The notes: a model not told the origin generated them from the sequence alone. Positions 1 through 55,930 are shown, numbered from the stretch's first letter. The stretch is 64,000 nt of DNA from Gemmatimonadales bacterium (GCA_036781225.1 DAIQBJ010000001.1:1389-65388); one strand, 5' to 3'. Program-made: numbers and translations.

Positions 1-944
1 ATCGCGTACAACAACACGAGGGCTGCGACGGCCATATAGGGCAGCGCCGCGCTGAAGCCGATCATCGCCGCGAGCGCGGCGGAAGTTAGCATTGTGCCGA
101 GGACGAACCGCCGCCGACCGAAGCGGATAGCGAGCTCGTTGCCCCACACGCTTGCCAACACACCAAGCAGACCCATCACGCTCGCGACGGTGGCCGGCGC
201 CAGTGGCGTCCACCCGCCGGACCCGTGCGCCGCGACGAAAGTGAGGAATGCGACGACCCAGCCGCGCAGAGCGGACATCTCCCACGTGTGCACGCAGTAC
301 GCGATCGAATAGGCGAGCGCCGAACGATTCCGCAGAACAGGTCGGAAGTCGAGCAGGGCCCCATGAGAAGACCCGGGCGCGCCCTTCAGACGACGGGACG
401 GTAGCCCCACCATGACCAGCACGAAGGCGAGCGCCGCGCCAACCGCTCCGGGTACGAGCGCCCACTGCCAGCCCCGCCACGCGTTGACTGCGCCCGCGAC
501 GCCGAAGGACAGCGCGCCGCTCACGCCGACCGCCGCGGCGTGCGCGGCCACGGCCCGAGACTGCGCCGGTCCCTCGGTGAGATCGCTCAACGCCTTGAGC
601 CCGGGCATATAGCTGCCCGCCCAGCCCGCGCCCATCAGAGCCCGGAACGCCAGCGCCGACCAGAACCCGCTCGCGGCCCAGGCGAAACCGGCGAAGGCGA
701 GCGACGTTACGGCGACGGAGCTGAGATAAACGCGTTTGGCATCCACGCGATCGGTCAGCGACGACAGCAGCGGCACGGTGAGCGTGTACGCGGCGTAGTA
801 GATTCCGCTGAGCCAGCCGGCCTCGGTGTTGGTCAGCGACCATGCGGAGATCAACGTCGGCAAGAGCGCCGCCACGCTGAACGCGCCGATCTGTGCGCAG
901 GCCTGTGCCGCGCACATCGCGATCACGCCACGATTCAGCCTCAT
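1..944 (-). CDS. MFS transporter, N-terminal ~314 codons (3' end lies beyond the left edge)
   Basis: Absent from the ORF track because no stop lies in the window. My reverse-complement translation from the ATG at 944-942 gives MRLNRGVIAMCAAQA..., and 241-320 gives ALAYSIAYCVHTWEMSALRGWVVAFLT. It is hydrophobic and multi-TM, and shares the H-x-W-E-[LM]...W..AFL motif with the MFS ORFs at 34265-35452 and 54704-55930. Confidence 0.7.
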   Translation of the reverse strand, partial: MRLNRGVIAMCAAQACAQIGAFSVAALLPTLISAWSLTNTEAGWLSGIYYAAYTLTVPLLSSLTDRVDAKRVYLSSVAVTSLAFAGFAWAASGFWSALAFRALMGAGWAGSYMPGLKALSDLTEGPAQSRAVAAHAAAVGVSGALSFGVAGAVNAWRGWQWALVPGAVGAALAFVLVMVGLPSRRLKGAPGSSHGALLDFRPVLRNRSALAYSIAYCVHTWEMSALRGWVVAFLTFVAAHGSGGWTPLAPATVASVMGLLGVLASVWGNELAIRFGRRRFVLGTMLTSAALAAMIGFSAALPYMAVAALVLLYA

Positions 945-959
945 CGCGTCACGGGCGGG

Positions 960-1466
960 TCACAACAGCCGTTCGACGATGACGCAGTCGCGCCACGCCC
1001 CTTCGAGCTGCCCGTGGCGCTGGTAGACGCCGACCACTCGGAATCCGCAGCGTTCGTGCAGCACCAAGCTGGCCGTATTCTCCGGAAAAATCCGCGAGAC
1101 GATCTTCCAGAACCCTCGTTCGGCATACGCCTTACATAGCGCCTCGAGCACGACGCGGCCGGCTCCCTTTCCGCGTGCGGAGCGAGCCACGTACACCGAG
1201 TGCTCGGCGACTCCCGCATAGGCGGCCCGATTTCGATATGGCCCTGCGCTCGCCCACGCGATGATCCGACCATGCTCCTCGATGAGGATCGTCGGAAAGC
1301 GATCGGCCTTCTCCGATAGTTGTGTGGCGATTTGCTGGGGCGTGCGAGGCTCGGTCTCGAACGTCGCGATCCGGTCGGCGATCCCTTCGTTGTAGATCGC
1401 CGCGATCACGGCCGCATCGGCCAGGGTCGCAAGTCGTGTCGTCATGGTCATTTTGTCGACGCTCAT
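960..1466 (-). CDS. GNAT N-acetyltransferase of the phosphinothricin-acetyltransferase (PAT/YncA) type; ArsN1-like by context
   Basis: 168-aa ORF. RIATFETEPRTPQQI...GRIIAWASAGPYRNRAAYAGVAEHSVYVARSARGKGAGRVVLEAL...ENTASLVLHERCGFRVVG is the PAT-family pattern. It lies in a marR-GNAT-GNAT-MFS string divergent from arsM. Confidence 0.75.
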   Translation of the reverse strand: MSVDKMTMTTRLATLADAAVIAAIYNEGIADRIATFETEPRTPQQIATQLSEKADRFPTILIEEHGRIIAWASAGPYRNRAAYAGVAEHSVYVARSARGKGAGRVVLEALCKAYAERGFWKIVSRIFPENTASLVLHERCGFRVVGVYQRHGQLEGAWRDCVIVERLL

Positions 1467-1508
1467 TTGCCGCCTAGGTCGGACTCCGACGCCTCGACCG
1501 TCACTGAA

Positions 1509-1958
1509 TTAGCTTTTCGTAGCATCGGCTGACCGGGTCGTCTCTGTATGGCCGAAGGGCGGGATAAGCTTGAAACCTATCCGCTCGTACAGACGGATGG
1601 CGGCGTGCTGATGAATGCCAGTTTCGAGCCGTAGTGTGCCGATGCCGTGGTCCTTTGCGTAGGCGGTCAGGTGGTCGAGGAGTAGCTCACCGAAGCCCAA
1701 GCCTCGAAACTGCGAACGCACGTACATTCGTTTGATCTCACCATATTCGGTACCGAACAATTTGATACCGCCACAGCCAGCGGCGGCGCCGTTATCGCGG
1801 ATCACGAAGAAGGCCACAGAATCGGCAATCAACTTCTGCATGCTAAAACCATGACGGCTAGCGCTCGGATAGAGCGGCTCGAGATGCGCGTCGAGCTCCG
1901 CGATCAATGCCGTCGCGTCGGGACTCGCGGGATGCTCCGGTGAGATAACCGCGGTCAT
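1509..1958 (-). CDS. GNAT family N-acetyltransferase
   Basis: 149-aa ORF with the acetyl-CoA binding core RMYVRSQFRGLGFGELLLDHLTAYAKDHG and C-terminal AAIRLYERIGF. Confidence 0.8.
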   Translation of the reverse strand: MTAVISPEHPASPDATALIAELDAHLEPLYPSASRHGFSMQKLIADSVAFFVIRDNGAAAGCGGIKLFGTEYGEIKRMYVRSQFRGLGFGELLLDHLTAYAKDHGIGTLRLETGIHQHAAIRLYERIGFKLIPPFGHTETTRSADATKS

Positions 1959-2055
1959 GGGCGATGTCTCTCTCTACTCGCTTGGAACCGAGGCCGCCCG
2001 GCGAGGCCTAGTTGTCAGTACCAACGCCGCACGCCGAAGCGTATCGGTCATACAA

Positions 2056-2538
2056 TCACGCTGAGCGCGAGGTCGGGGAGGCGCAGCTCATGCGTCGCTG
2101 CGTGGCGTCGGCAAGACGACGCATGACTTCTGTGATGCCTCCGCGGACCTCCGGCGAAAAGTCCGCCAACAGCTGTGTGCGTTCGGCAATCCGATCCGCC
2201 CGGATCCGATCGCAGAGCCGGCGTCCGGCCGGCGTGACGCCTAACAACACAGCGCGACCATCGCCGGGATGAGTGGCTCGTCGCACGTAGCCCTTCCGCT
2301 GCAATGTCGCCACGACTCGACTCGCCGTACTCTTGTCCAGGCACAATTCGGCAGCCAGGGCGTTCAGTGTGCACGGCCCGCGTCGCAGCAGGGTGTCTAG
2401 TGCGTAGCACTGGGTGAGCGAGATATCGTGACAACAGATTTGGTCGCGCTCGGCGACGAGGTAGGCCCGCACGAAGTCGACAAGCGCTTCGTGGAAAGCT
2501 TCGGCGTGTCGCTGAAGCAGCCGGTTCCGCTGCGTCAT
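2056..2538 (-). CDS. MarR family transcriptional regulator
   Basis: Winged-helix region LNALAAELCLDKSTASRVVATLQRKGYVRRATHPGDGRAVLLGVTPAGRRL. The track start at 2556 is a TTG; the ATG at 2538 (MTQRNRLL...) is more likely. Confidence 0.85.
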   Translation of the reverse strand: MTQRNRLLQRHAEAFHEALVDFVRAYLVAERDQICCHDISLTQCYALDTLLRRGPCTLNALAAELCLDKSTASRVVATLQRKGYVRRATHPGDGRAVLLGVTPAGRRLCDRIRADRIAERTQLLADFSPEVRGGITEVMRRLADATQRRMSCASPTSRSA

Positions 2539-2631
2539 TGTGGTTGTCAGTGGCAACTATATTGAACTCGGGATATGCTGTCAACCGGCGCATCCGAGAT
2601 TATCGGGCGTTGCTCGTTACAGGAGGACGCG
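2539..2631. promoter_or_regulatory. Divergent marR / arsM control region with inverted repeat
   Basis: GGTTGTCAG (2542-2550) and CTGTCAACC (2578-2586) form an 8/9 inverted repeat around a locally AT-rich core (AACTATATTGAAC). AGGAGG lies 7 nt before the arsM ATG at 2632. Confidence 0.4.
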
Positions 2632-3456
2632 ATGGCGGATAGAGACCTAAAAGACGTCGTGAAGGAAAAGTACGGCAACGCCGCGCTGAAGGTTGTCAGC
2701 GGCAGTAATGCGTCTTGCTGCGAGACCGTATCGTCACACGGGCAGAACGATCCGATCACGTCCAACCTCTATGGCTGTGGCGAGACGGCCGGGCTACCCG
2801 CGGAGGCGGTCGCTGCCTCGCTAGGCTGCGGTAACCCGACGGCGCTCGCGCAACTCAACGCCGGCGAGGTTGTGCTCGACCTCGGCTCCGGCGGCGGCAT
2901 CGACGTGCTCCTCTCGGCGAAACGTGTCGGACCGACGGGCAAGGCCTATGGGCTCGACATGACGGATGAGATGCTGGCGCTCGCGCGCGAGAATCAGAAG
3001 AAGGCAGCCGTGACCAACGTCGAGTTCCTCAAGGGGGAGATCGAACACATCCCCCTCCCCGGCAACAGCGTGGATGTCATCATCTCGAATTGCGTCATCA
3101 ATCTGTCGGCCGACAAAGATCGCGTGCTGACCGAGGCCTTCCGGGTGCTCAAGCCCGGCGGGCGGTTTGCGGTCTCGGACGTCGTCGTACGGGGTGAGGT
3201 CCCGACCGCCATCCGTCGCAGCGTGGAGCTGTGGATCGGCTGCGTAGCGGGAGCGCTCGAGGAAAACGAGTATCGCGAAAAGCTGACGAAAGCCGGCTTC
3301 GAGGCGATCGGCGTCGAGCCGACGCGGGTGTATCGGACTGAGGATGCACGCGACTTCTTCGCGGGCTCGGGGATCGACATCGACGCAATTGCGCCCCAGG
3401 TCGAAGGCAAGTTCATGAGCGCGTTCGTTCGCGCCATCAAGCCCAGATCCCGCTGA
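2632..3456 (+). CDS. arsM: Arsenite S-adenosylmethionine methyltransferase
   Basis: SAM motif [14 protein letters not shown] plus the four conserved ArsM cysteine contexts ([28 protein letters not shown]). Start chosen at the ATG with an AGGAGG SD rather than the track start at 2575. Confidence 0.9.
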
Positions 3457-3744
3457 GCGACCGAGAGTCGCCTTGATGATTTGGGGCGGCCACCCCAGCG
3501 GAATCTGGCAATCCCCTATGCCTCCCCTGTCGTAGGAGCGACCGCGTTCAATTTCTAGCTCCGTTGCGCGGTTGATCCAGTCAGCTTCAGTCGCAGCAAT
3601 CTAAACGTCACGGTCGTGTGATTTTTTCGCAACTCGCCGCGCGCATTCTCCGAGCCCACAGTCGCTCAGTCCGAGTCGCTCGCTCGAAGCGCTGGGCAGA
3701 CGAAGCGAATGGCGTGAGCCCGGGGCGCTGCGCCCCAGGCTGCA

Positions 3745-3947
3745 GGCTGCCGTTTTATCCAATCGTGTCGTTCAGCTGGCTGTTGCTGTACGAGAACTAC
3801 CAAGATCGGCAGAAGAGCGTAGCCCTCAAAGATTTCATCAGATGGGGCCTCTCGCGAGGCCAGTCGTACAGCCCTGAGCTCGGGTATGTCGCATTGCCAG
3901 CGGATGTCGCCGAACTATCACGAGCGGCCCTCGAAAGGGTCAACTGA
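3745..3947 (+). pseudogene. pstS: C-terminal remnant of phosphate-binding protein PstS
   Basis: Only the last ~67 codons of the 109-aa ORF look like PstS (FYPIVSFSWLLLYENYQDRQKSVALKDFIRWGLSRGQSYSPELGYVALPADV). There is no N-terminal two thirds and no signal peptide upstream. Confidence 0.6.
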
Positions 3948-4004
3948 TTCCCGCGGCTCGTAGATTCCAAAGGGCCACGTCAGATGTCTCGCCGGACAAT
4001 ATAG

Positions 4005-4030
4005 TTCAGCGACCCCTCGCTGAATTTCTG
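4005..4030 (+). terminator. Hairpin plus short T-tract (intrinsic-terminator-like)
   Basis: TTCAGCGA-CCCC-TCGCTGAA is a perfect 8-bp stem with a 4-nt loop (4005-4024), followed by TTTCTG. It lies between the convergent pstS remnant and arsC. Confidence 0.5.
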
Positions 4031-4045
4031 ATCAACGAGTTTCTG

Positions 4046-4573
4046 TTATGAAGCCTCGCGGTCTGCGACCTCGCTCCCGGAGCGCCCAATATCATCAAGC
4101 CGGCGCTGAAGCGCCATCTCGTCGAGATCTTCCAACCGCAGACTCACGAAGATTCTGATTCGAGCGTCCAGTTCCGAGCAGATCTTCCTGAACGCATCTC
4201 GGCGCTTGGCGTCTGGTCCTACAACAGCTGCCGGGTCCTCGACTCCCCAGTGCGCTGTGATCGGCTGCCCTGGCCAGATCGGGCACGCCTCGCCAGCGGC
4301 CTTGTCGCATACCGTAAATACGAAATCGAGAGGCGGGCTATCGGGCCGCGCAAACTCGTCCCAGCTCTTGCTCCGGAGATCGTCCGTCGAGAAGTTCATG
4401 CCTTTTAGCAGTTCAACGGCGAAGGGATGAACGATTCCGGTTGGATGACTTCCCGCGCTAAAGGCCCGGAACCGGCCCGTCCCCCATCGGCTGAGCAAGG
4501 ATTCGGCCATGATGCTTCGAGCAGAGTTGCCCGTGCATAGGAAGAGGACGTTGTAAACGCGCTTTGCGCTCAT
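4046..4573 (-). CDS. arsC: Arsenate reductase, LMW-PTPase (thioredoxin-coupled) type
   Basis: P-loop LFLCTGNSARSIMAE and distal cysteine pair TVCDKAAGEACP. Start at the ATG at 4573 (MSAKRVYNVLF) preceded by GGGGAG; the track start at 4627 is an extension. Confidence 0.9.
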   Translation of the reverse strand: MSAKRVYNVLFLCTGNSARSIMAESLLSRWGTGRFRAFSAGSHPTGIVHPFAVELLKGMNFSTDDLRSKSWDEFARPDSPPLDFVFTVCDKAAGEACPIWPGQPITAHWGVEDPAAVVGPDAKRRDAFRKICSELDARIRIFVSLRLEDLDEMALQRRLDDIGRSGSEVADREAS

Positions 4574-4694
4574 TTCGACTCCCCAGGACGGTGTAGGGCG
4601 TCCTGGGATGGAGGCTACGCAAAGCATGTTGCGCGAGCGTAACGTTTTCGCGACGACTGTGTCACGTCGTCAGCGCGGCTGAGTCAGTCGATCC

Positions 4695-5435
4695 CTAGAC
4701 GGACACGACCAATCCGTCGCTGGCGCACTCTTCAGGGACTTTGTCCGCCTGCGCGAGCATCTCCCGGCTCATGTGAGTCAGGATTACGCGCCGCGCCCCG
4801 AGCGTCGAGCGACGCGCTGCGATGTCAGGATAGTTAAGGTGCCATTTGATCGGTTTTTCGTAATAGTACGACTCAGCGATGAAGAGGTCGGCGCCGGCCG
4901 CGACTTTCGCGACATCGTCAGTCCACTCGGTATCGCCGGTGTAGGAGACGACCTTACCGCCGACTTCCACGCGAATCGCAGTGGGATTGGTTTCCGCCGT
5001 GTGGCGCGCCAGCTGTGGCGTCACTACGAGGTCCAGGATCCGGTGTGATCGGCCTGGTTCCATCTCGAGCCAGGTGAGCGGGAACTTTGGCGTCATCACA
5101 TGCGAGCCGGGGAACAGAGCTTCTCGGATGTCGCCCATGCGTCGTTGTAAATCACGAGGGCCCGCGACGACCAGCGGTCGCGTACGCTTCGCACCGAGCA
5201 TCGCGTCTATCAGAAGAAATGGTACGCCGCCGCAATGATCTCCGTGCAGATGGGTCAGTAGGATGGCGTCGATAGAATTGTGCTCGATCCCTTGCTGCGC
5301 CAGCGCGATGAGTGACGAAGTTCCGAAATCGATCGCGAACCGTGACTGCGGTCCATCCACAAGGATGCAGGTCTGGAAACGCCCGCCGCTGCCAAAGGAA
5401 TCGCCTGACCCCACAAACCGGACGTTCACCGTCAT
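4695..5435 (-). CDS. MBL-fold metallo-hydrolase
   Basis: 246 aa with the HxHxDH motif (LTHLHGDHCGG). Its start overlaps the upstream stop by 1 nt (TAATG at 5433-5437). Confidence 0.85.
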   Translation of the reverse strand: MTVNVRFVGSGDSFGSGGRFQTCILVDGPQSRFAIDFGTSSLIALAQQGIEHNSIDAILLTHLHGDHCGGVPFLLIDAMLGAKRTRPLVVAGPRDLQRRMGDIREALFPGSHVMTPKFPLTWLEMEPGRSHRILDLVVTPQLARHTAETNPTAIRVEVGGKVVSYTGDTEWTDDVAKVAAGADLFIAESYYYEKPIKWHLNYPDIAARRSTLGARRVILTHMSREMLAQADKVPEECASDGLVVSV

Positions 5436-6646
5436 TAGATGATTCCGCTCTCGCGCAGCGCCGCGCGTTCCGCAGAACTAAGCTTCAACATGCTCTCGAG
5501 CACCTCTTCCGTGTGCTGGCCCAACGTGGGCGGGGGTCGTCGGAAGCTCACCGGCGTCTCTGAGAGCTTTAGCGGACTGCCGATCAGCGGAACGGCGTTC
5601 GCTGGGTGCTCCATTGAGATCTTCATCCCCCGATGGAGGACTTGGGGATCGGCGAAAACGCGATCGATCGTGTTGACTGGCCCACACGGAAGCTCAGCCG
5701 CCTGCAGCCGATCAACCCAATGCTGTGTCGTGTGCTTTCGCGTCAGTCCCTTGAAGAGCTCGACGAGCTCTACTCGGTGCTTGAGGCGCGTCGAATTTGT
5801 TGCAAAGCGTGGATCCGCGGCCAGCTCCGGAGCGCCTGCAACTTCACAGAGCCGTCGGAACTGCCGGTCGTTGTTTGCACCGAGAATCACGTGTCCATCG
5901 CTCGTGCGAAAGACTTGATAGGGCACAGTGTTTGGGTGCCCGGTCCCCCACCGCCCCGGCACCTTCCCCGACAGCAAATAGTTGAGGCCAACGTTGTAGA
6001 GCCAACCCACCTGTACGTCGAGCAGCGCGATGTCGATGTGTTGTCCATGGCCAGTACGATCTCGGTGCCGCAAGGCACTGAGAATGCCTACTCCGGCATA
6101 GAGGCCGCTTATCACGTCGTTCACCGCGACGCCGACCTTGACCGGTGGCGCGTCGGTTTCCCCGGTGACGCTCATGATTCCGCCCTCACCCTGCGCCATG
6201 AGATCGTAGCCGGGTCGCGCCGCATATGGCCCGTCTTGGCCATACCCGGTAATCGAGCAGTAGACGAGCCTCGGGCAACTGTCGCGCAGCTGTGCATAGG
6301 CGAGGCCATACTCCAACAGAGCCCCAACCTTGAAGTTCTCGATGAGAACATCCGCGTGTTCCGCAAGCCGGCGTACCAGCGCCGCACCTTCAGGCCGCGC
6401 GAAGTTGATCGTGACCGAGCGTTTGTTGCGGTTCGCGCTCAGGTAATAGCCACTCTCAGTCGTCTCGTTTCCGCTGACATCCCGTACAAATGGCGGCCCC
6501 CACGTTCGTGTCTCGTCCCCCACGCCAGGTCGTTCGACCTTGATGATTTCCGCGCCCAGGTCGCCAAGCATCTGTGTGCATGACGGGCCCGCGAGCACGC
6601 GACTAAGATCCAGAACGGTGATGCGGTCAAGCGGTCCAGGAGTCAT
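5435..6646 (-). CDS. Family III CoA-transferase (CaiB/BaiF type)
   Basis: 403 aa with the N-terminal signature RITVLDLSRVLAGPSCTQMLGDLGAEIIKVERPGVGDETR. Confidence 0.9.
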   Translation of the reverse strand: MTPGPLDRITVLDLSRVLAGPSCTQMLGDLGAEIIKVERPGVGDETRTWGPPFVRDVSGNETTESGYYLSANRNKRSVTINFARPEGAALVRRLAEHADVLIENFKVGALLEYGLAYAQLRDSCPRLVYCSITGYGQDGPYAARPGYDLMAQGEGGIMSVTGETDAPPVKVGVAVNDVISGLYAGVGILSALRHRDRTGHGQHIDIALLDVQVGWLYNVGLNYLLSGKVPGRWGTGHPNTVPYQVFRTSDGHVILGANNDRQFRRLCEVAGAPELAADPRFATNSTRLKHRVELVELFKGLTRKHTTQHWVDRLQAAELPCGPVNTIDRVFADPQVLHRGMKISMEHPANAVPLIGSPLKLSETPVSFRRPPPTLGQHTEEVLESMLKLSSAERAALRESGII

Positions 6647-6662: not shown

Positions 6663-7139
6663 TCATGGCCTTCTGATTGTCACTGCATCGGCTGGTCGCT
6701 GATCCGCGAGCCAGCTCAAGAGCTTTTCTCGAATCTCCTCGCGGATGCGCCGGAACACGGCAAGCCGCGCTTCTTCCGTGCCAGCAGTGCGCGACGGATC
6801 TTCGAAGCTCCAGTGAAGCCTCTGCGCCGCGCGAGGAAACACCGGGCATGCCTCATTGGCGGCGTCGCACACCGTGATGACCCAGTCCCATCGATCATGG
6901 AGGAACCGCTCGAAAATCTTCGACGTGTGAGGGGTGAGATCTATACCGACCTCGGCCATCGCGCGTATAGCGAGAGGATGCACTTGCGTCGCCTCTGTGC
7001 CGGCGCTTGCTGCCTCGTACCGACCACCGGCCAGCGCACGCAGCCAGGATTCAGCCATCTGGCTGCGTGCTGAGTTGTGAGTGCAGAGAAAGAGAACCCG
7101 CTCCTTCGCTGCGTCATCCCTGCCCGCCGGACCCTTCAT
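6663..7139 (-). CDS. arsC: Arsenate reductase, LMW-PTPase type (second copy)
   Basis: VLFLCTHNSARSQMAE P-loop and ITVCDAANEACPVFP distal cysteines; 158 aa. Confidence 0.9.
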   Translation of the reverse strand: MKGPAGRDDAAKERVLFLCTHNSARSQMAESWLRALAGGRYEAASAGTEATQVHPLAIRAMAEVGIDLTPHTSKIFERFLHDRWDWVITVCDAANEACPVFPRAAQRLHWSFEDPSRTAGTEEARLAVFRRIREEIREKLLSWLADQRPADAVTIRRP

Positions 7140-7201: not shown

Positions 7202-7522
7202 TTACGGACGCTCGATACGCTCGTATGCGGCATCACACAACGTAATGACGTAGTCCCATCGCGTTCCCATCTCAGAAATCTGCTTCGCGCGATGGCCACG
7301 CAGGCTCACGCCGCGTTCCGCCATGACCTGCTCCGCTAAGGAATGCACTCTGGTCGGCGTCGCGCCGGCGCTCGCGACGTAAAATCGGTCACCGCCCATT
7401 TGGCGCAACAGCGCTTCTGCCATTTGGCTACGCGCCGAATTATGCGTACACACAAACAACACGTGCGATTGCGACTCTGGCACTGCCGATATTTTTGATT
7501 CGGGCCGATCTGACGAAGGCAT
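7202..7522 (-). pseudogene. arsC: Truncated arsC paralogue (lacks the distal catalytic Cys region)
   Basis: VLFVCTHNSARSQMAE is intact, but the ORF ends at ...WDYVITLCDAAYERIERP*. The intact neighbour continues there as WDWVITVCDAANEACPVFP... Confidence 0.6.
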
Positions 7523-7628
7523 TCCGAATTCTTTCTCGCCACAGAAACCACACGAAGGCCACGTACCCGACGAAGAGGATCACTATGAGAATGAACTCGG
7601 ATGCGGACATGCGCGCCTCCGCTCCTCG

Positions 7629-7941
7629 CTACGTTTGCTCCAGAACCTCGAGATCGACCCCGATGCTTCCCAGTTCGTGGATCAGCGCGAATAAGTCTTC
7701 GGGCCGGCCGACAAGCCGGTCGAGCGCGGAACACACAATGACGTCGATCTCGCCGTTGCGCGCGGTAGCCAACAGCGCTCAGAGCTGGGCGCTCTTCATC
7801 CGTGACTGACACACCGTCGTCGACAAATTCCGCGATTGCCCATCCACGAGTTTGGGCAAACTCTCGGAGTGTCGCGAGCTGCTTATCAGGCGCCTTGTCC
7901 CAAGCGGCGACTCGGGCATAGAGGCCCGCTCGTACCGGCAA
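7629..7941 (-). pseudogene. Serine recombinase (resolvase/invertase) catalytic-domain remnant, frameshifted and truncated
   Basis: The N-terminus is LYARVAAWDKAPDKQLATLREFAQTRGWAIAEFVDDGVSVTDEERPAL, with Ala at the usual YARVS nucleophile position. After about 7760 the resolvase-like sequence continues only in another frame (LLATARNGEIDVIVCSALDRLVGRPEDLFALIHELGSIGVDLEVLEQT*). No HTH domain is present. Confidence 0.65.
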
Positions 7942-34264: not shown

Positions 34265-35452
34265 TCAGCGACGCCCGCCGGCCATGAGTCGGCTCGCAGG
34301 GTGACACCGCAGCAAAAGCATCGCGGCCGGCCCAGCAAGGGCAACGACGCCGAGCGAAGCGAATGCAATCTGCCATGCACCGCCGGTGACGTCGAGTACC
34401 CAGCCGAAGAGTACCGGCGATAACGCACCCGCGAGCCACCCGATGGCGCCATAGAGGCCAAGCGCGGTACCGACCCCGGCCGCCGGCGTCACTTCCGTTA
34501 CGCCTGTGGAGAGCACCGGGGAATCACCAATGGCGAACATGTAGTAGAGCGCGCCGAGCGTAACGAGGAGCAGCGATGGTGCCGCGATGAGCCAGCCGAA
34601 GCAAAGCGACCCGAGAATACTGGTGAGCATGATCGTGATGGCGGCGGCCGTGCGCCCAATGCGGTCCGACAAATAGCCGCCCCCCAAGACGCCAACGACC
34701 CCGAGCGCAAGAATCGGGAACGCGGAGATCGACGCCCGCGCGGCTGCCACGTCGAGGTCGGCGCCCGCAGCAACGAAGCTCGCGGTGAGAAACGCGGTGA
34801 GCCAGCCCCAGATTCCCATCAACTCCCAGTTGTGAGCAAAGTATGCGAGGCACAGGAGGAATCCCGGCATCGTGAGCCGCTTGGGAATCACGGAGGCCGG
34901 CTCACGTCTCTCTCGATGATTTCGAAGCAGACGCATCGCACCAACAGCCCCGGCGAGAGCGACGAGGCCGAGCGCGACGAACGCCGCTCGCCACCCCAGG
35001 AATGCCGTCAGCGTGCCGGTAACCGCAAGCGAGATCGCTAAACCGCCCGCAAGCGAGGCCACGAATATCCCGACCGCACGACCTCGCTCTCGCGGCGCAC
35101 CAGCAGTCACCAGCTTGACACCAGGCATGTAGGTGCCACCGATGCCGATGCCGCCGAGCGCCTTCAGGAGCGCAGCCGATATCGGTCCAGAAGCGAAAAG
35201 TCCGAACGCGACCATCGAGACGGCGGCGCAAAACGCCGACCCTACAAAGATCACTGCCGCCGACCACCGATCGCTCAGCGCGCTCAGAGCAATGACGGCG
35301 ACGACGAACCCGGCCTGACCGGCCGCGGCGATCGCGCCGGCCTGGCTGTTCGACAATCCCCAGTCGTGGCGGAGGAGGGGCAACACCGCTGAGATATTGA
35401 GGTGGGTGGAAATCACAGCGAGCGAGCAGAGACCTAACAGAGTCGGCGTCAC
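34265..35452 (-). CDS. MFS transporter
   Basis: 395 aa, about 12 hydrophobic segments. Shares the YFAHNWELMGIWGWLTAFLT motif with the other two MFS ORFs in the window. Confidence 0.85.
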   Translation of the reverse strand: MTPTLLGLCSLAVISTHLNISAVLPLLRHDWGLSNSQAGAIAAAGQAGFVVAVIALSALSDRWSAAVIFVGSAFCAAVSMVAFGLFASGPISAALLKALGGIGIGGTYMPGVKLVTAGAPRERGRAVGIFVASLAGGLAISLAVTGTLTAFLGWRAAFVALGLVALAGAVGAMRLLRNHRERREPASVIPKRLTMPGFLLCLAYFAHNWELMGIWGWLTAFLTASFVAAGADLDVAAARASISAFPILALGVVGVLGGGYLSDRIGRTAAAITIMLTSILGSLCFGWLIAAPSLLLVTLGALYYMFAIGDSPVLSTGVTEVTPAAGVGTALGLYGAIGWLAGALSPVLFGWVLDVTGGAWQIAFASLGVVALAGPAAMLLLRCHPASRLMAGGRR

Positions 35453-47715: not shown

Positions 47716-48177
47716 CTACGCCCGCCGCTTCAGCAGACGCAGTATGGGGCGCTGTCGGACGGTCGTTGCGGCAGTCAGCGCGTTACATGCTGTGCCGCGC
47801 TGCTCATTCTCGAGCTTCATCAGAGTTCGCATCCGGCCGAGATCGTCACGACCGGCCTTGTCGTCAACGAGCTGCGGAGCCGCCTTCAAGAGCGCTCGGT
47901 AGACCGGGTGCGCCTGCGCCGATGCGGAAATGCCGTAGAAAACGAATGGGCCACGCCGGGTCGCGATCAGGAGCCCGCTCCGCCGCAGCGGACCGAGATG
48001 ACGTGAGATCTGGTATTGCGGCAGTCGAAGAATTGCGACGAGCTCGCAGACGCAGAGATCTGGGGTTCGAGAGAGCAGGCTCAGGATGCGAAGTCGTGTG
48101 TCGTCAGCGAGAAGCCGCAGAAACTTCGCGCCGTTGGTCGGCAGTTTCAGCGAGGGGGCATATGCACCGTTGCGCAT
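47716..48177 (-). CDS. arsR: ArsR/SmtB family metalloregulator with the CVC As(III)-site motif
   Basis: 153 aa; LRLLADDTRLRILSLLSRTPDLCVCELVAILRLPQYQISRHLGPLRRSGLL (ELCVC-type site) plus a ~50-aa C-terminal extension. Confidence 0.85.
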   Translation of the reverse strand: MRNGAYAPSLKLPTNGAKFLRLLADDTRLRILSLLSRTPDLCVCELVAILRLPQYQISRHLGPLRRSGLLIATRRGPFVFYGISASAQAHPVYRALLKAAPQLVDDKAGRDDLGRMRTLMKLENEQRGTACNALTAATTVRQRPILRLLKRRA

Positions 48178-48278: not shown

Positions 48279-49178
48279 CTACCGAAGACGGGGCAAACGC
48301 AACGCGACTGCTCGGCAGAGTCCCCAGCCGATCACGGCACCGCACAATGGACCGAGGACATAGACAGTCAGCCACCCGCCTCGTGGGCCTGGAATCGCGA
48401 TCTCACCCCATCCGAGAAAGTACGAGACGAGCCGAGGCCCAAAATCGCGGGCGGGGTTAAGTCCCGCCTGGGTCAGCGGCGCAACCACCGAGATGATGGC
48501 CGCGACCGTCAAGCCAATGAACAGAGGCGTCGTTCCGGCTGAGGGCCTCGCCGAATTGCGATCTCGCGTCAAGATGCAAATGAGAAATGCGAGCATCGCG
48601 GTGCCGACGAGCTCTGCGAGGAAAGCCGAGAAGGGACCGACCACGCGCCACGCCTCTTCTGCGGTTCCGAAAATCGACGGATTCGGGAAGTACTCGCCGA
48701 AGACCATGGCCGACAGCTCGCTGCCAGGGCCGCCTCGCAGCAACCCGCGCTTTCGCTCGAACTCGATGATCGCTTCCGAAAACATGCTGTAGAGCACGAG
48801 CGAGGCCGTCGCAGCGCCGGCGGTTTGGGCAATCGCGTAAGGGATGACTCGCAGCCACGAAAACCCTTCGTAGATCGCCGCTGCGACAGTGATGGCCGGG
48901 TTGAGATGGGCCCCGGAGAGGGAAGCTGACGCATAAATGCCAAGGCTCACCCCGACTGCCCAAACGACCGCGACTTGCCACAGTCCGGCCTGCGCGCCGG
49001 TCGCGACCGCCGCATTGACCGCGCCCACTCCGAAAAATACGAGGATGAACGTCCCGACGTATTCCGCAAGAAGCGCCGGTCCCAGCGGCATCGGCGGTGG
49101 CACGCCGCCGCGTACCTGTTCCGTTGGAAATGACTCGATCTCGGTTCGGATCGTGCTGCCGTCCTCGCGTGGCGTCAC
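48279..49178 (-). CDS. Aquaglyceroporin (GlpF/AqpS-like MIP channel)
   Basis: Two NPA boxes in GlpF-like contexts (SLSGAHLNPAITVAAA; PLTQAGLNPARDFGPRL). The GTG at 49178 overlaps the upstream stop (GTGA); the alternative ATG at 49091 gives MPLGPALLAEY... Confidence 0.85.
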   Translation of the reverse strand: MTPREDGSTIRTEIESFPTEQVRGGVPPPMPLGPALLAEYVGTFILVFFGVGAVNAAVATGAQAGLWQVAVVWAVGVSLGIYASASLSGAHLNPAITVAAAIYEGFSWLRVIPYAIAQTAGAATASLVLYSMFSEAIIEFERKRGLLRGGPGSELSAMVFGEYFPNPSIFGTAEEAWRVVGPFSAFLAELVGTAMLAFLICILTRDRNSARPSAGTTPLFIGLTVAAIISVVAPLTQAGLNPARDFGPRLVSYFLGWGEIAIPGPRGGWLTVYVLGPLCGAVIGWGLCRAVALRLPRLR

Positions 49179-53856: not shown

Positions 53857-54336
53857 TTACGAACTAGCGCAGCACGAACCGCCGCTGGCAACTACGGTGA
53901 GCCCCTTCTTGAGCGGCAAATGCTGTGTGTCGGTGGCGCAGGACGCACCATCCTCAATATCGTGATTGAGGACATAGACCTCCCACTCCACGCCATCGGG
54001 ATCCTGGACCCAGAACTTGTCCTGGTTGGCGTGGCAGCAATTCACGCTGAACTCCTCTCGAACAGGCAAGCCGATCGCCTTGACGCGCTCCATTTCGCGG
54101 ACCACGATCGCCTGCGATTCGACCTGGATGCCCATGTGATCGACGTGGCCGCGGCCTTCGGACGGTCGCGCTTCGGAGAGCGCGAGATTCAAGGGGCCAA
54201 ACGGCGGAAGAAACTTCACGTAGCCGGGCTTCACCTTCACCGGTGCGACACCGAGAAACTTCTCGTAGAACGCCCGGCTCTTGGTGAGGTCGGACACCGT
54301 CATGTGGACATGGACCTTAGGCGCTTCGACGCTCAT
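53857..54336 (-). CDS. arsI: ArsI/CadI-type VOC-fold C-As lyase (dioxygenase)
   Basis: 159 aa; FYEKFLGVAPVKVKPGYVKFL, HMGIQVES and the vicinal-Cys substrate motif VNCCHANQDKFWVQDPDGVEWEVY, plus a Cys-rich tail GGSCCASS. Confidence 0.8.
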   Translation of the reverse strand: MSVEAPKVHVHMTVSDLTKSRAFYEKFLGVAPVKVKPGYVKFLPPFGPLNLALSEARPSEGRGHVDHMGIQVESQAIVVREMERVKAIGLPVREEFSVNCCHANQDKFWVQDPDGVEWEVYVLNHDIEDGASCATDTQHLPLKKGLTVVASGGSCCASS

Positions 54337-54346
54337 CGTGGGCCTC

Positions 54347-54682
54347 CTAGCAACAGGCTGTCAGGATACGAACGAGTTCCGAGACCATTTCGGCTCGAGG
54401 AGAGTAGTAGATGTATCGCTCCTCGCGGCGGCTTTGAACCAGTCCGGCGCGGCGCAGGATATCGAGATGGTGCGACAGCGTCGGGCCAGGAATCTCCAGT
54501 TGCGCCTGAATGTCTCCAGCGGCCACTTCCGCCTTAGCCTTCACAAGAAAGAAGAAGATCTGCAACCGCGACTGGTGCGCGAGCGCCTTGAACGCTTCAA
54601 CATGCTCGTCGCGCGCCTGGAGTCGACTCAGTGGAAGTGTCTTCACGTTTTCAAATATATTGAAATGTAGGGCGTCTGTCAA
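54347..54682 (-). CDS. arsR: ArsR/SmtB family regulator with C-terminal Cys pair
   Basis: FKALAHQSRLQIFFFL...AGDIQAQLEIPGPTLSHHLDILRRAGLV...LTACC*. The track start at 54682 is a TTG; a GTG at 54646 is an alternative. Confidence 0.8.
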   Translation of the reverse strand: MTDALHFNIFENVKTLPLSRLQARDEHVEAFKALAHQSRLQIFFFLVKAKAEVAAGDIQAQLEIPGPTLSHHLDILRRAGLVQSRREERYIYYSPRAEMVSELVRILTACC

Positions 54683-54703
54683 TTGCAGAGCCGTGCGCGC
54701 GGA

Positions 54704-55930
54704 TCATGTGACCCGCTGGCTCCTGGTTCCCTCCATTCGTACGAAGACTGCGGCCCAGATCGCGACAAGACCGCCGAGACCAAGCACGACGAACGCCCAT
54801 CCCCATGCCATCCGCGTTCCGGCCAGAGCGTTGACGTGGTCAAGGACCACACCGAAGGCTAACGGCGCGATGGCGCCCGCGCCGAATCCAAGCAGTGACC
54901 GAAAGCCTAGTGCCGCTCCCAGGGACGGCGCGCTCACGACTTGAGTCAGTGTCGATGACAGAATCGGTGAATCGCCGATGGCCGTAAACGCATAGAGCGC
55001 TCCCACCCCAAGTACCAGGAAAGCTGGAAAGCCAATCAACCAGCCGAAAAAGAATGAACATGCAGTGCTCACGGTTGCCAGCGTGATCAAAATGCGGCGT
55101 GCTCCTATCTTGTCCGAAAGCCATCCCATTGTTGAGGATGCGATGACGCCCATCATGTGAAACGCTGCTGAAGAATAGGCGCCCAGCTCCGCTGCTCGTA
55201 CCAACCCAGCGCCAGACGCTGCAAAACTCGCTGCGAGGAATGCCGGTATCCATGCCCACATCCCGAGAAGCTCCCAGCTATGTCCCGTATAGCCAATGAT
55301 CAGTCGCATTGCGGGTCGGTTCTTGAAGACGGCGCCACCAAATCGCGGCTGACCCTCCGCTGAGTGCACGATGTTCGACGTTCCTCGTAACGCAGGCCAC
55401 GCGATGATGACGCTAAGCACGGGGCCACCTGCGGTGGCAAGGAACGCCGCTGGATAACCGCCATGCCGGAGCATGACGCCACACAGAATCAGTGACATGA
55501 CATACCCAGCCGAGCTACTCGCGATCAACCAGCCAACGGCGCCGCCTCGCTTATCCGGGGGGTAGCGTTGGGACATCAACATGATCGCTGTCGTATAGAG
55601 ACCGCCCTGCGAGATCGCAATGAGCGTGTACAGCAGTAGGCCCGAGAGATAAGATCGCGCGAACATCGCAAACGCCAGCGCTGCGATCGCACTCGCGACA
55701 AGAGACCACTGAAAGACTCGGCGCGCACCGACTCGATCCGCAATGACCGAAAAAGCGACGAGCGATACAGCGTAGCCGAGCTGGAACGATGAGGAGATAG
55801 ACCCGGCGGCCGTGGCTGACATCGCCCATTCACTGCGTAAAACGGTCAGCGTGCCGGCATACGTCATAGACATAAACATCGCGAACGCCCGCGACACACA
55901 GACCGAGACAAGCCAGGAGTCGATGCTCAC
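54704..55930 (-). CDS. MFS transporter (ars-linked by position)
   Basis: 408 aa, about 12 TM segments. Shares GYTGHSWELLGMWAWIPAFLA with the other two MFS ORFs. Its stop lies 21 nt upstream of arsR. Confidence 0.85.
   Translation of the reverse strand: MSIDSWLVSVCVSRAFAMFMSMTYAGTLTVLRSEWAMSATAAGSISSSFQLGYAVSLVAFSVIADRVGARRVFQWSLVASAIAALAFAMFARSYLSGLLLYTLIAISQGGLYTTAIMLMSQRYPPDKRGGAVGWLIASSSAGYVMSLILCGVMLRHGGYPAAFLATAGGPVLSVIIAWPALRGTSNIVHSAEGQPRFGGAVFKNRPAMRLIIGYTGHSWELLGMWAWIPAFLAASFAASGAGLVRAAELGAYSSAAFHMMGVIASSTMGWLSDKIGARRILITLATVSTACSFFFGWLIGFPAFLVLGVGALYAFTAIGDSPILSSTLTQVVSAPSLGAALGFRSLLGFGAGAIAPLAFGVVLDHVNALAGTRMAWGWAFVVLGLGGLVAIWAAVFVRMEGTRSQRVT

Follow-up and report, generated by a model that had tools for sequence, protein, structure and literature searches.

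A probable MarR_ars-controlled organoarsenical resistance block with an ArsN1 family A acetyltransferase gene in an uncultured soil bacterium

Arsinothricin, a broad-spectrum antibiotic that contains arsenic, has arsN1 as its known resistance gene. We examined the first 3456 nucleotides (nt) of a 64,000-nt stretch of DNA from a Gemmatimonadales bacterium (GCA_036781225.1, DAIQBJ010000001.1:1389-65388), the whole stretch being referred to below as the window. This block, positions 1-3456, holds one MarR-type regulator gene, two GNAT acetyltransferase genes, one MFS permease gene and the arsenic methyltransferase gene arsM (Table 1). From the minus strand marR, a small GNAT gene named GNAT_A here, a PAT-like GNAT gene (arsN1) and the MFS gene are transcribed in that order, with intergenic gaps of 97, 42 and 15 nt and no terminator-like site above chance level between them, and arsM diverges from marR across a spacer of 93 nt (2539-2631). 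An earlier interpretation made from the DNA alone, hereafter the sequence-only reading, had predicted these five genes, and all of them were recovered at or very near their predicted places with the limits of the spacer unchanged. The gene assignments are far beyond chance by their E-values, and the identities of the genes are established by curated models; conservation of the cysteines and of the predicted operators, and synteny, were likewise observed. We read the locus as an organoarsenical resistance block of a soil bacterium under the control of MarR_ars and give this reading a probability of about 0.7.

Table 1. Features of the block at window positions 1-3456: feature, position and length, strand, and main basis (aa, amino acids)
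MFS permease	3..944, N-terminal 314 of 420 aa, open at the window's left edge	-	PF07690, E=6e-27
PAT-like GNAT (arsN1, family A by model match)	960..1466, 168 aa	-	NF040503
Small GNAT (GNAT_A), YedL/YsnE-like	1509..1958, 149 aa	-	Pfam Acetyltransf_1, E=2e-19
Predicted MarR_ars operator, copy 2, GTTGTCAGTACCAAC	2011..2025	no strand	between marR stop and GNAT_A start
marR_ars	2056..2538, 160 aa	-	PF12802, E=1.9e-15; PF01047, E=1.4e-14
Predicted MarR_ars operator, copy 1, GTTGTCAGTGGCAAC	2543..2557	no strand	marR/arsM spacer
Sigma-70-like marR promoter, TTGACA-17 nt-TATAGT	2556..2584	-	11/12 consensus positions
arsM	2632..3456, 274 aa	+	NF008823; Shine-Dalgarno AGGAGG 2621-2626

The start of marR was set at ATG 2538 and not at TTG 2556, since the predicted -10 box contains this TTG and a protein of 160 aa is obtained by independent gene calls. 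A longer arsM open reading frame (ORF) beginning at 2575 is unsupported, the Shine-Dalgarno sequence being placed ahead of the start at 2632. ArsM passes its model with 365 bits (cut-off 263), and the four conserved cysteine contexts that had been described for this gene, divergent from marR, are all found (SCCE, LGCGNP, SNCVINL and IGCVAGA), with motifs including GCVAGAL aligning to the solved ArsM 5evj. As to base composition, the G+C content of the MFS gene (window 1-1000) is 68-70% versus 58-65% across the remainder of the first 12 kb.

The 168-aa GNAT was compared with curated family models and with solved structures. It scores 212.5 bits against NF040503, the model for ArsN1 family A (cut-off 170), over model positions 1-159, and stays below the family B model NF040504 with 113.5 bits (cut-off 210). 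An identity as a phosphinothricin acetyltransferase (PAT/Bar) was rejected as well, NF040502 giving 89.7 bits for a cut-off of 300. Among PDB matches the enzyme lies about equally far from many PAT-like enzymes, the arsinothricin acetyltransferase PpArsN1 being found at 60.6 bits, and MnaT/YncA identity was discarded given that neither YncA (3dr6, 67 bits) nor PA4866 (2bl1, 73 bits) is among the best matches. Hence a grouping with these housekeeping enzymes, which the sequence-only reading regarded as the outcome opposed to its own, is contradicted by 67 bits for YncA versus 212.5 bits for the ArsN1 family A model. Its best annotated relatives, plasmid genes named as ArsN1 family A by NCBI, include one with 52% identity (Caulobacter) and one with 49% identity (Pseudomonas nitroreducens). 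Furthermore, an identical 168-aa protein is present on ~24 metagenome contigs, and the order marR-GNAT_A-arsN1-MFS is seen again in independent samples. In a metagenome scan anchored on the MFS gene, which used a 10-sequence alignment as query (a 40-sequence alignment was too diverse for locus search) and gave 80 loci at 51-91% identity, arsN1 genes are found in ars operons at 41 loci, and within ~6 kb of the window arsN1 lie arsM, marR_ars, arsI, arsP and arsC. By its model score the enzyme is assigned to ArsN1 family A, and by analogy it is predicted to N-acetylate arsinothricin-type amino acids. The family A match, the relatives in ars clusters and the arsI and arsP genes of the same contig thus support the ArsN1-type GNAT in an organoarsenical module that had been proposed.

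Relatives of the window MarR were collected by scanning one genome per species, which found 341. The locus counts use the 80 closest, members of the Acidobacteriota, Gemmatimonadota, Rokuibacteriota/Methylomirabilota, Verrucomicrobiia and Lysobacterales, and since these are its nearest relatives the neighbour proportions describe the clade of the window MarR only. The protein has a winged helix-turn-helix, a vicinal Cys35-Cys36 pair (ICCHD), a further cysteine at position 44 and a C-terminal one, Cys152, 8 residues from the end. In close homologues the motif I-C-C-H-D-I-S-L-T-Q-C-Y is near-invariant (in a wider form, ICC(H/Y/F)D...QC), with Cys35 kept in 108/121, Cys36 in 120/121 and Cys44 in 121/121. 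Indeed, Cys44, a position which lies outside the search pattern, is kept in 75 of 77 relatives over five phyla, and 74 of 76 relatives have a cysteine, mostly as a CC pair, among their final 30 residues. His37 and His90 were rejected as metal ligands, many relatives having Tyr/Phe and Asp/Asn instead.

The MarR_ars subfamily was described from the Achromobacter deleyi As-55 protein AdMarR_ars (CP074375.1), a repressor responsive to As(III)/Sb(III) which requires Cys36, Cys37 and Cys157 and binds the marR and arsV promoters, and whose orthologues sit upstream of arsV, arsP and arsN; the preprint mentions no arsM, no operator sequence and no invariant Cys44 (Yu et al., bioRxiv 10.1101/2021.08.12.456183). 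In its fold, its vicinal pair and its third, C-terminal cysteine, the window MarR fits this subfamily of As(III)/Sb(III)-responsive repressors, Cys152 corresponding to Cys157 of AdMarR_ars by position only. The genomic context agrees too, marR standing beside arsN1 and arsM. Since MarR_ars senses trivalent arsenic and antimony through thiols, the likely inducer is As(III) or methylarsenite (MAs(III)) and not an amino-acid-like arsenical, and by analogy the window sensor would most likely detect trivalent arsenic rather than arsinothricin. The MarR is consequently retained as the sensor that the sequence-only reading had made of it, and the ligand is where we depart, trivalent arsenic most likely taking the place of an amino-acid-like organoarsenical.

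With regard to Cys44, whose codon lies at window 2407-2409, its conservation equals that of the vicinal pair, yet the preprint's three tested cysteines do not include it; it may serve as a fourth ligand or stand in as the third. Among the 80 closest relatives, from at least five phyla, marR is directly followed by a same-strand arsM in 62, compared with a partner list of arsV, arsP and arsN in the preprint; an ArsV-like flavoprotein gene takes this place in 10 and arsN1 in 5, and arsP is also present among the neighbours of the relatives. A literature search returned no MarR-type regulator of arsM apart from the MarR_ars preprint.

A palindrome of 15 base pairs (bp), GTTGTCAGTNNCAAC, was noticed by eye in the block and then validated by occurrence statistics. 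It occurs exactly twice in the window versus 0.04 expected, one copy being in the marR/arsM spacer, where it overlaps the last -10 bases and the start region of the near-consensus marR promoter, and the other between marR and GNAT_A. In the 80 related MarR loci the pattern GTTG-N7-CAAC is found within -160 to +30 of the marR start in 74, versus 0.026 expected per 190 nt, and in 61 it is also found in the interval from the marR stop to the following gene. The same two-site layout is present in three differently arranged loci, L012, L016 and L018, and in L012 the palindrome overlaps TATAGT as it does in the window. A generic repeat finder run over 1940-2660 did not pick up any inverted repeat within the marR/arsM spacer. 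From this distribution we infer that the GTTG-N7-CAAC sites are MarR_ars operators, and the two predicted sites fit the binding of two promoter fragments by AdMarR_ars. The consensus of the two-site palindrome is approximately GTTGYNANTNNCAAC, with sites at L012 6526, L016 5985 and 6528, and L018 7489.

The genes described so far belong to a larger organoarsenical island, as judged from arsI and arsP on the contig's left and from ArsC genes right of arsM. Past the MFS gene, to the left of the window, the contig carries a VOC-fold ArsI/CadI (NF041414, 130 bits, cut-off 116) and, further left, an ArsP_1 permease gene on the other strand, then an AraC/DJ-1 regulator and an insertion-sequence (IS) integrase. 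The nearest named relatives of the MFS permease, the MarR and GNAT_A are in Candidatus Rokuibacteriota metagenome-assembled genomes.

Based on these elements, the block may be proposed to function as follows. In the absence of arsenic, a MarR_ars dimer would sit on the two 15-bp GTTG-N7-CAAC palindromes and repress marR itself, GNAT_A-arsN1-MFS and probably arsM. Trivalent arsenic or antimony would then bind the thiolates of Cys35/Cys36 plus Cys152 and/or Cys44, and the repressor would be released. As(III) could then be methylated by ArsM, while ArsN1 family A would transfer an acetyl group from acetyl-CoA to the alpha-amino group of arsinothricin or of a close amino-acid arsenical, the acetylated product presumably no longer inhibiting glutamine synthetase. 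The arsenical would be expelled by the MFS permease, and ArsI (a C-As lyase) and ArsP (methylarsenite efflux) would be contributed by the contig just outside the window. In this scheme the response of MarR_ars to As(III)/Sb(III) and the acetylation of arsinothricin by a family B enzyme are carried over, by analogy, from the literature, and we infer that arsM is repressed through the spacer it shares with marR, as well as the substrate of the MFS permease and any role of GNAT_A.

Several points tell against this reading of the block. The MarR counts are no unbiased census, since the loci are closest relatives and CCHD formed part of the search pattern, and the membership in MarR_ars is suggested indirectly, by motif, context and proxies such as the Tahibacter protein (L097). 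No promoter was detected for arsM or ahead of GNAT_A in a scan of 1-3700, in which the marR promoter is the sole promoter-like site found. The sole biochemically tested ArsN1 that was found, PpArsN1 (PDB 5jtf/6m7g), is of family B and gives 60.6 bits to the window protein. Furthermore, when the contact residues of the PpArsN1-arsinothricin complex are mapped onto the window enzyme, family A swaps 5 of the 11 mapped substrate-contacting positions (I31A, V86H, G122R, A124F and V158C). Finally, homologues of GNAT_A at 77-79% identity are also located among unrelated, non-ars genes, and ars neighbours are missing for part of the wider MFS family.

The MFS permease is the component for which an alternative role has the most weight. 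The full-length protein of 420 aa is encoded on the same contig (L001 10523-11785), its start lying 15 nt past the arsN1 stop. On NCBIfam it matches generic MFS models only at E of 0.001 or below, with no match to ArsJ or any other specific model; identity with ArsJ was further rejected as no ArsJ-type GAPDH gene is nearby. It was likewise distinguished from ArsQ, an arsinothricin efflux permease which is GntP-related (PMC8552651), the window protein being MFS_1. No close solved relative was found (Spns1, 43 bits), a tblastn of PLSDB returned no relative at E of 1e-10 or below, and the MFS adjoining marR-arsN1a on the Pseudomonas plasmid, considered as a possible relative, is unrelated in sequence. 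Nevertheless, the gene shows a strong linkage to ars genes. Of the close homologues for which 1.1 kb or more of upstream sequence is available, 20/22 carry a same-strand arsN1 within 1.2 kb upstream and 22/22 have ars neighbours, compared with 9/27 for arsN1 and 12/27 for any ars gene in more distant homologues. In a neighbour-joining tree two ars-linked clades are separated by lineages with varied non-ars neighbours. The typical operon reads arsR-arsI-arsM-(MIP)-arsN1-(arsC)-MFS-(GNAT_A), and arsR-arsI-MFS is also seen.

ArsK exports As(III), Sb(III), Rox(III) and MAs(III), and by this example the MFS permease may be the island's pump for trivalent arsenicals, As(III) and MAs(III), doing the job of Acr3, ArsB or ArsK, with its adjacency to arsN1 being a matter of operon order. 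We regard this as a serious contender, although short of an even chance. A pump of this kind would fit a setting in which Acr3 is found in 1/91 MFS-bearing loci, ArsA, ArsD and ArsH in 0/91, and neither Acr3 nor ArsB in the 64-kb window or its left flank; but for MAs(III) an ArsP is already present in the window island, and many MFS operons hold a MIP channel which could release As(III). The neighbourhood can be argued in both directions as well. Close MFS homologues are seen in the order arsR-arsI-MFS, without arsN1, and in the order arsR-arsP-arsV-MFS, and arsC-MFS is very frequent with gaps of 11-50 nt, which resembles the classical pairing of arsC with a pump, whereas arsN1 stands immediately upstream of the MFS gene in the 20 of 22 close homologues mentioned above and the weak subfamily similarities of the permease are to organic-anion transporters (PgtP, D-galactonate) and not to drug or metalloid pumps. 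Hence, export of an acetylated amino-acid arsenical and general pumping of trivalent arsenicals are comparably likely roles. The exporter of the sequence-only reading therefore keeps its strong ars linkage, and export of the acetylated product becomes one of these two roles.

The substrate of the acetyltransferase was considered in the same manner. PpArsN1 (PhoN1, PP_1924, of Pseudomonas putida KT2440) acetylates arsinothricin (Nadar et al. 2019, PMC6465285; PDB 5jtf, 5wph, 6m7g). Its orthologue on a P. shirazica plasmid, which gives 280 bits to 5jtf, passes the family B model with 259 bits and fails the family A model with 82 bits, and from this the assayed PpArsN1 is taken to be of family B. 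Given that the tested enzyme is of family B and that the family A pocket differs, arsinothricin is a presumed substrate for family A. The acetylation precedent invoked by the sequence-only reading accordingly holds for PpArsN1, but this precedent is a family B enzyme and the window enzyme is of family A with a different, conserved pocket. In the numbering of the window enzyme the swapped residues are Ala34, His89, Arg125, Phe127 and Cys161, and across 38 family-A-like sequences the Ala, Arg and Phe are invariant and the His and Cys near-invariant (33/38).

These departures from PpArsN1 leave room for a second alternative, in which ArsN1 family A would mainly acetylate another amino-acid-like compound, for instance hydroxyarsinothricin or some unknown arsenical, or else phosphinothricin or methionine sulfoximine. 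The ArsN1 literature searched contained no biochemically assayed family A member, and ArsN1 was reported to form two subclades, among which PAT and MAT enzymes branch (Nadar et al., PMC6465285), both of which agree with such a shift in substrate. On the other hand, the curated equivalog model names family A for arsinothricin resistance, family A is consistently found in ars operons, and the contact residues with specific side-chain roles, namely Phe33, Arg75, Arg77, Tyr80 and Tyr89 in PpArsN1 numbering, are kept in the window enzyme. We therefore consider this alternative unlikely and retain acetylation of an arsinothricin-type amino acid as the predicted reaction.

GNAT_A could be assigned less precisely. 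ArsN2 is a small ars-operon GNAT related to N-acetylglutamate synthase, and GNAT_A was rejected as ArsN2 with 27.7 bits against NF040501 (cut-off 125), true ArsN2 proteins from related operons scoring 133-154 bits; to a true ArsN2 it is 27% identical over 85 residues. No specific curated family is matched, and the best PDB matches are 3lod, which is uncharacterised, and YsnE (1yx0). The function of this second GNAT had been left unassigned, and this stands, with the curated model ruling out ArsN2. GNAT_A recurs as marR_ars-GNAT_A-arsM and as MFS-GNAT_A; it is directly 3' of the MFS gene in 10/66 loci with at least 500 nt downstream, and a GNAT_A match lies within 3 kb in 12/80 loci. An exclusive linkage to ars genes was ruled out by the non-ars contexts of its homologues. 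ArsN2 homologues themselves are present in 17/80 MarR_ars loci, and in the Gemmatimonadota loci checked (L041, L049, L066 and L084) the product of the gene that separates marR from arsM scores above the ArsN2 cut-off, at 146-154 bits. The ArsN2 genes are at L041 8482-8985, L049 8438-8896, L066 2935-3462, L084 8460-8915 and L180 4509-4970, and on the Pseudomonas shirazica plasmid arsN2 is directly upstream of the arsN1 orthologous to that of PpArsN1.

A last alternative, that both GNATs are chance neighbours of arsM, being acetyltransferases of the housekeeping MnaT/YncA type or of a generic detoxifying kind, draws on the unrelated neighbourhoods of GNAT_A homologues and on its lack of a specific curated family, but is very improbable, being already contradicted for the 168-aa enzyme by the YncA score and opposed, for the pair, by the repetition of the marR-GNAT_A-arsN1-MFS order in independent samples, by the predicted MarR_ars operator directly upstream of GNAT_A and by the two further ars arrangements containing it.

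Further features were observed around the block. Right of arsM are three paralogues of the low-molecular-weight phosphatase type of ArsC, at 4046-4627, 6663-7139 and, truncated, 7202-7522, together with an MBL-fold hydrolase gene (4695-5435) and a family III CoA-transferase gene (5435-6646) which share one base. A resolvase N-terminal remnant is located in the ORF 7336-7941, and with the truncated ArsC it suggests past recombination at the border of the island. The ~590 bp that separate arsM from the gene to its right (3457-4045) contain an ORF on the plus strand (3618-3947), which was considered as a remnant of a phosphate-binding protein and is unconfirmed, having no Pfam match. A few kb past arsP there are rve IS-type integrases (L001 15051-16142 and 18995-20059; L004 15051-16417), whose arrangement differs between samples, as would fit an island that is mobile or was recently rearranged.

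A second small ars cluster was found on the minus strand at window 53860-55924, with an MFS, an ArsR and an ArsI-like gene (tblastn only), the products being respectively 26% identical to the first MFS, 67% to the ArsR of L008 and 57% to the other ArsI of the contig. Matches obtained by tblastn only are an ArsR-like one at 47929-48126, a weak MIP-like one at 48702-48998 and an MFS paralogue (31%) at 34271-35401. On a 2.3-Mb contig (L007, 9844-12201), a 785-aa fusion of a Pyr_redox_3 flavoprotein and an ArsM-type methyltransferase adjoins arsR in an arsC-arsN1-MFS operon.

Taken together, the locus is a neatly complete organoarsenical resistance island of described families with two uncharacterised accessory genes, and it leaves the current understanding unchanged. 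It places the less-studied ArsN1 family A under a probable MarR_ars switch in an uncultured soil lineage, in the company of arsM, arsI and arsP, and provides a predicted two-site GTTG-N7-CAAC operator for a repressor subfamily whose binding site is not given in the MarR_ars preprint. Moreover, arsM is the commonest partner in the MarR clade of the window, and a defined MFS clade and a small GNAT emerge as good candidates for functional testing. A more ambitious proposal, which we hold to be doubtful, is that the MFS clade and GNAT_A are undescribed ars genes, family A acetylating an amino-acid organoarsenical through its own pocket, the MFS permease expelling the resulting anion and GNAT_A acting as a non-orthologous replacement of ArsN2. 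If this were true, it would represent a first route to acetylate and expel an arsenical antibiotic and would offer a handle on ArsN2 function.

Compared with known systems, the window enzyme resembles PpArsN1 as a PAT-like GNAT in an ars cluster, with Phe33, the Arg75/Arg77 gate, Tyr80 and Tyr89 kept, and co-regulation by arsenic would be a further shared feature. In contrast, PpArsN1 is an ArsR-controlled enzyme of family B, whereas that of the window is a presumably MarR-controlled one of family A and its pocket differs at five conserved positions. The regulator resembles AdMarR_ars in its vicinal cysteine pair near residue 36, its C-terminal cysteine and the adjoining organoarsenical resistance genes, and the two promoter fragments bound by AdMarR_ars, those of marR and of the downstream gene, agree with the two operator copies in the window. 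The target of AdMarR_ars is arsV, while the putative targets in the window are instead a GNAT gene, arsN1, an MFS gene and the divergent arsM. GNAT_A is similar to ArsN2 in size and in operon slot, Gemmatimonadota having marR_ars-arsN2-arsM where relatives of the window have marR_ars-GNAT_A-arsM. As for the permease, ArsK and ArsJ are characterised MFS permeases of ars operons, in which the window MFS is also encountered, and the export role of ArsK is the leading rival role for it. A further similar arrangement, known from annotation, is that of the P. nitroreducens HBP1 plasmid pPniHBP1_1 (NZ_CP049142.1), which reads marR-arsN1a-FAD oxidoreductase-arsD-arsA and shares with the window the order of its marR and arsN1a genes, the products being 50% (MarR) and 49% (ArsN1a) identical. 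The plasmid cluster is without the small GNAT and without arsM, and its MFS gene, divergent from its marR, is unrelated in sequence to that of the window.

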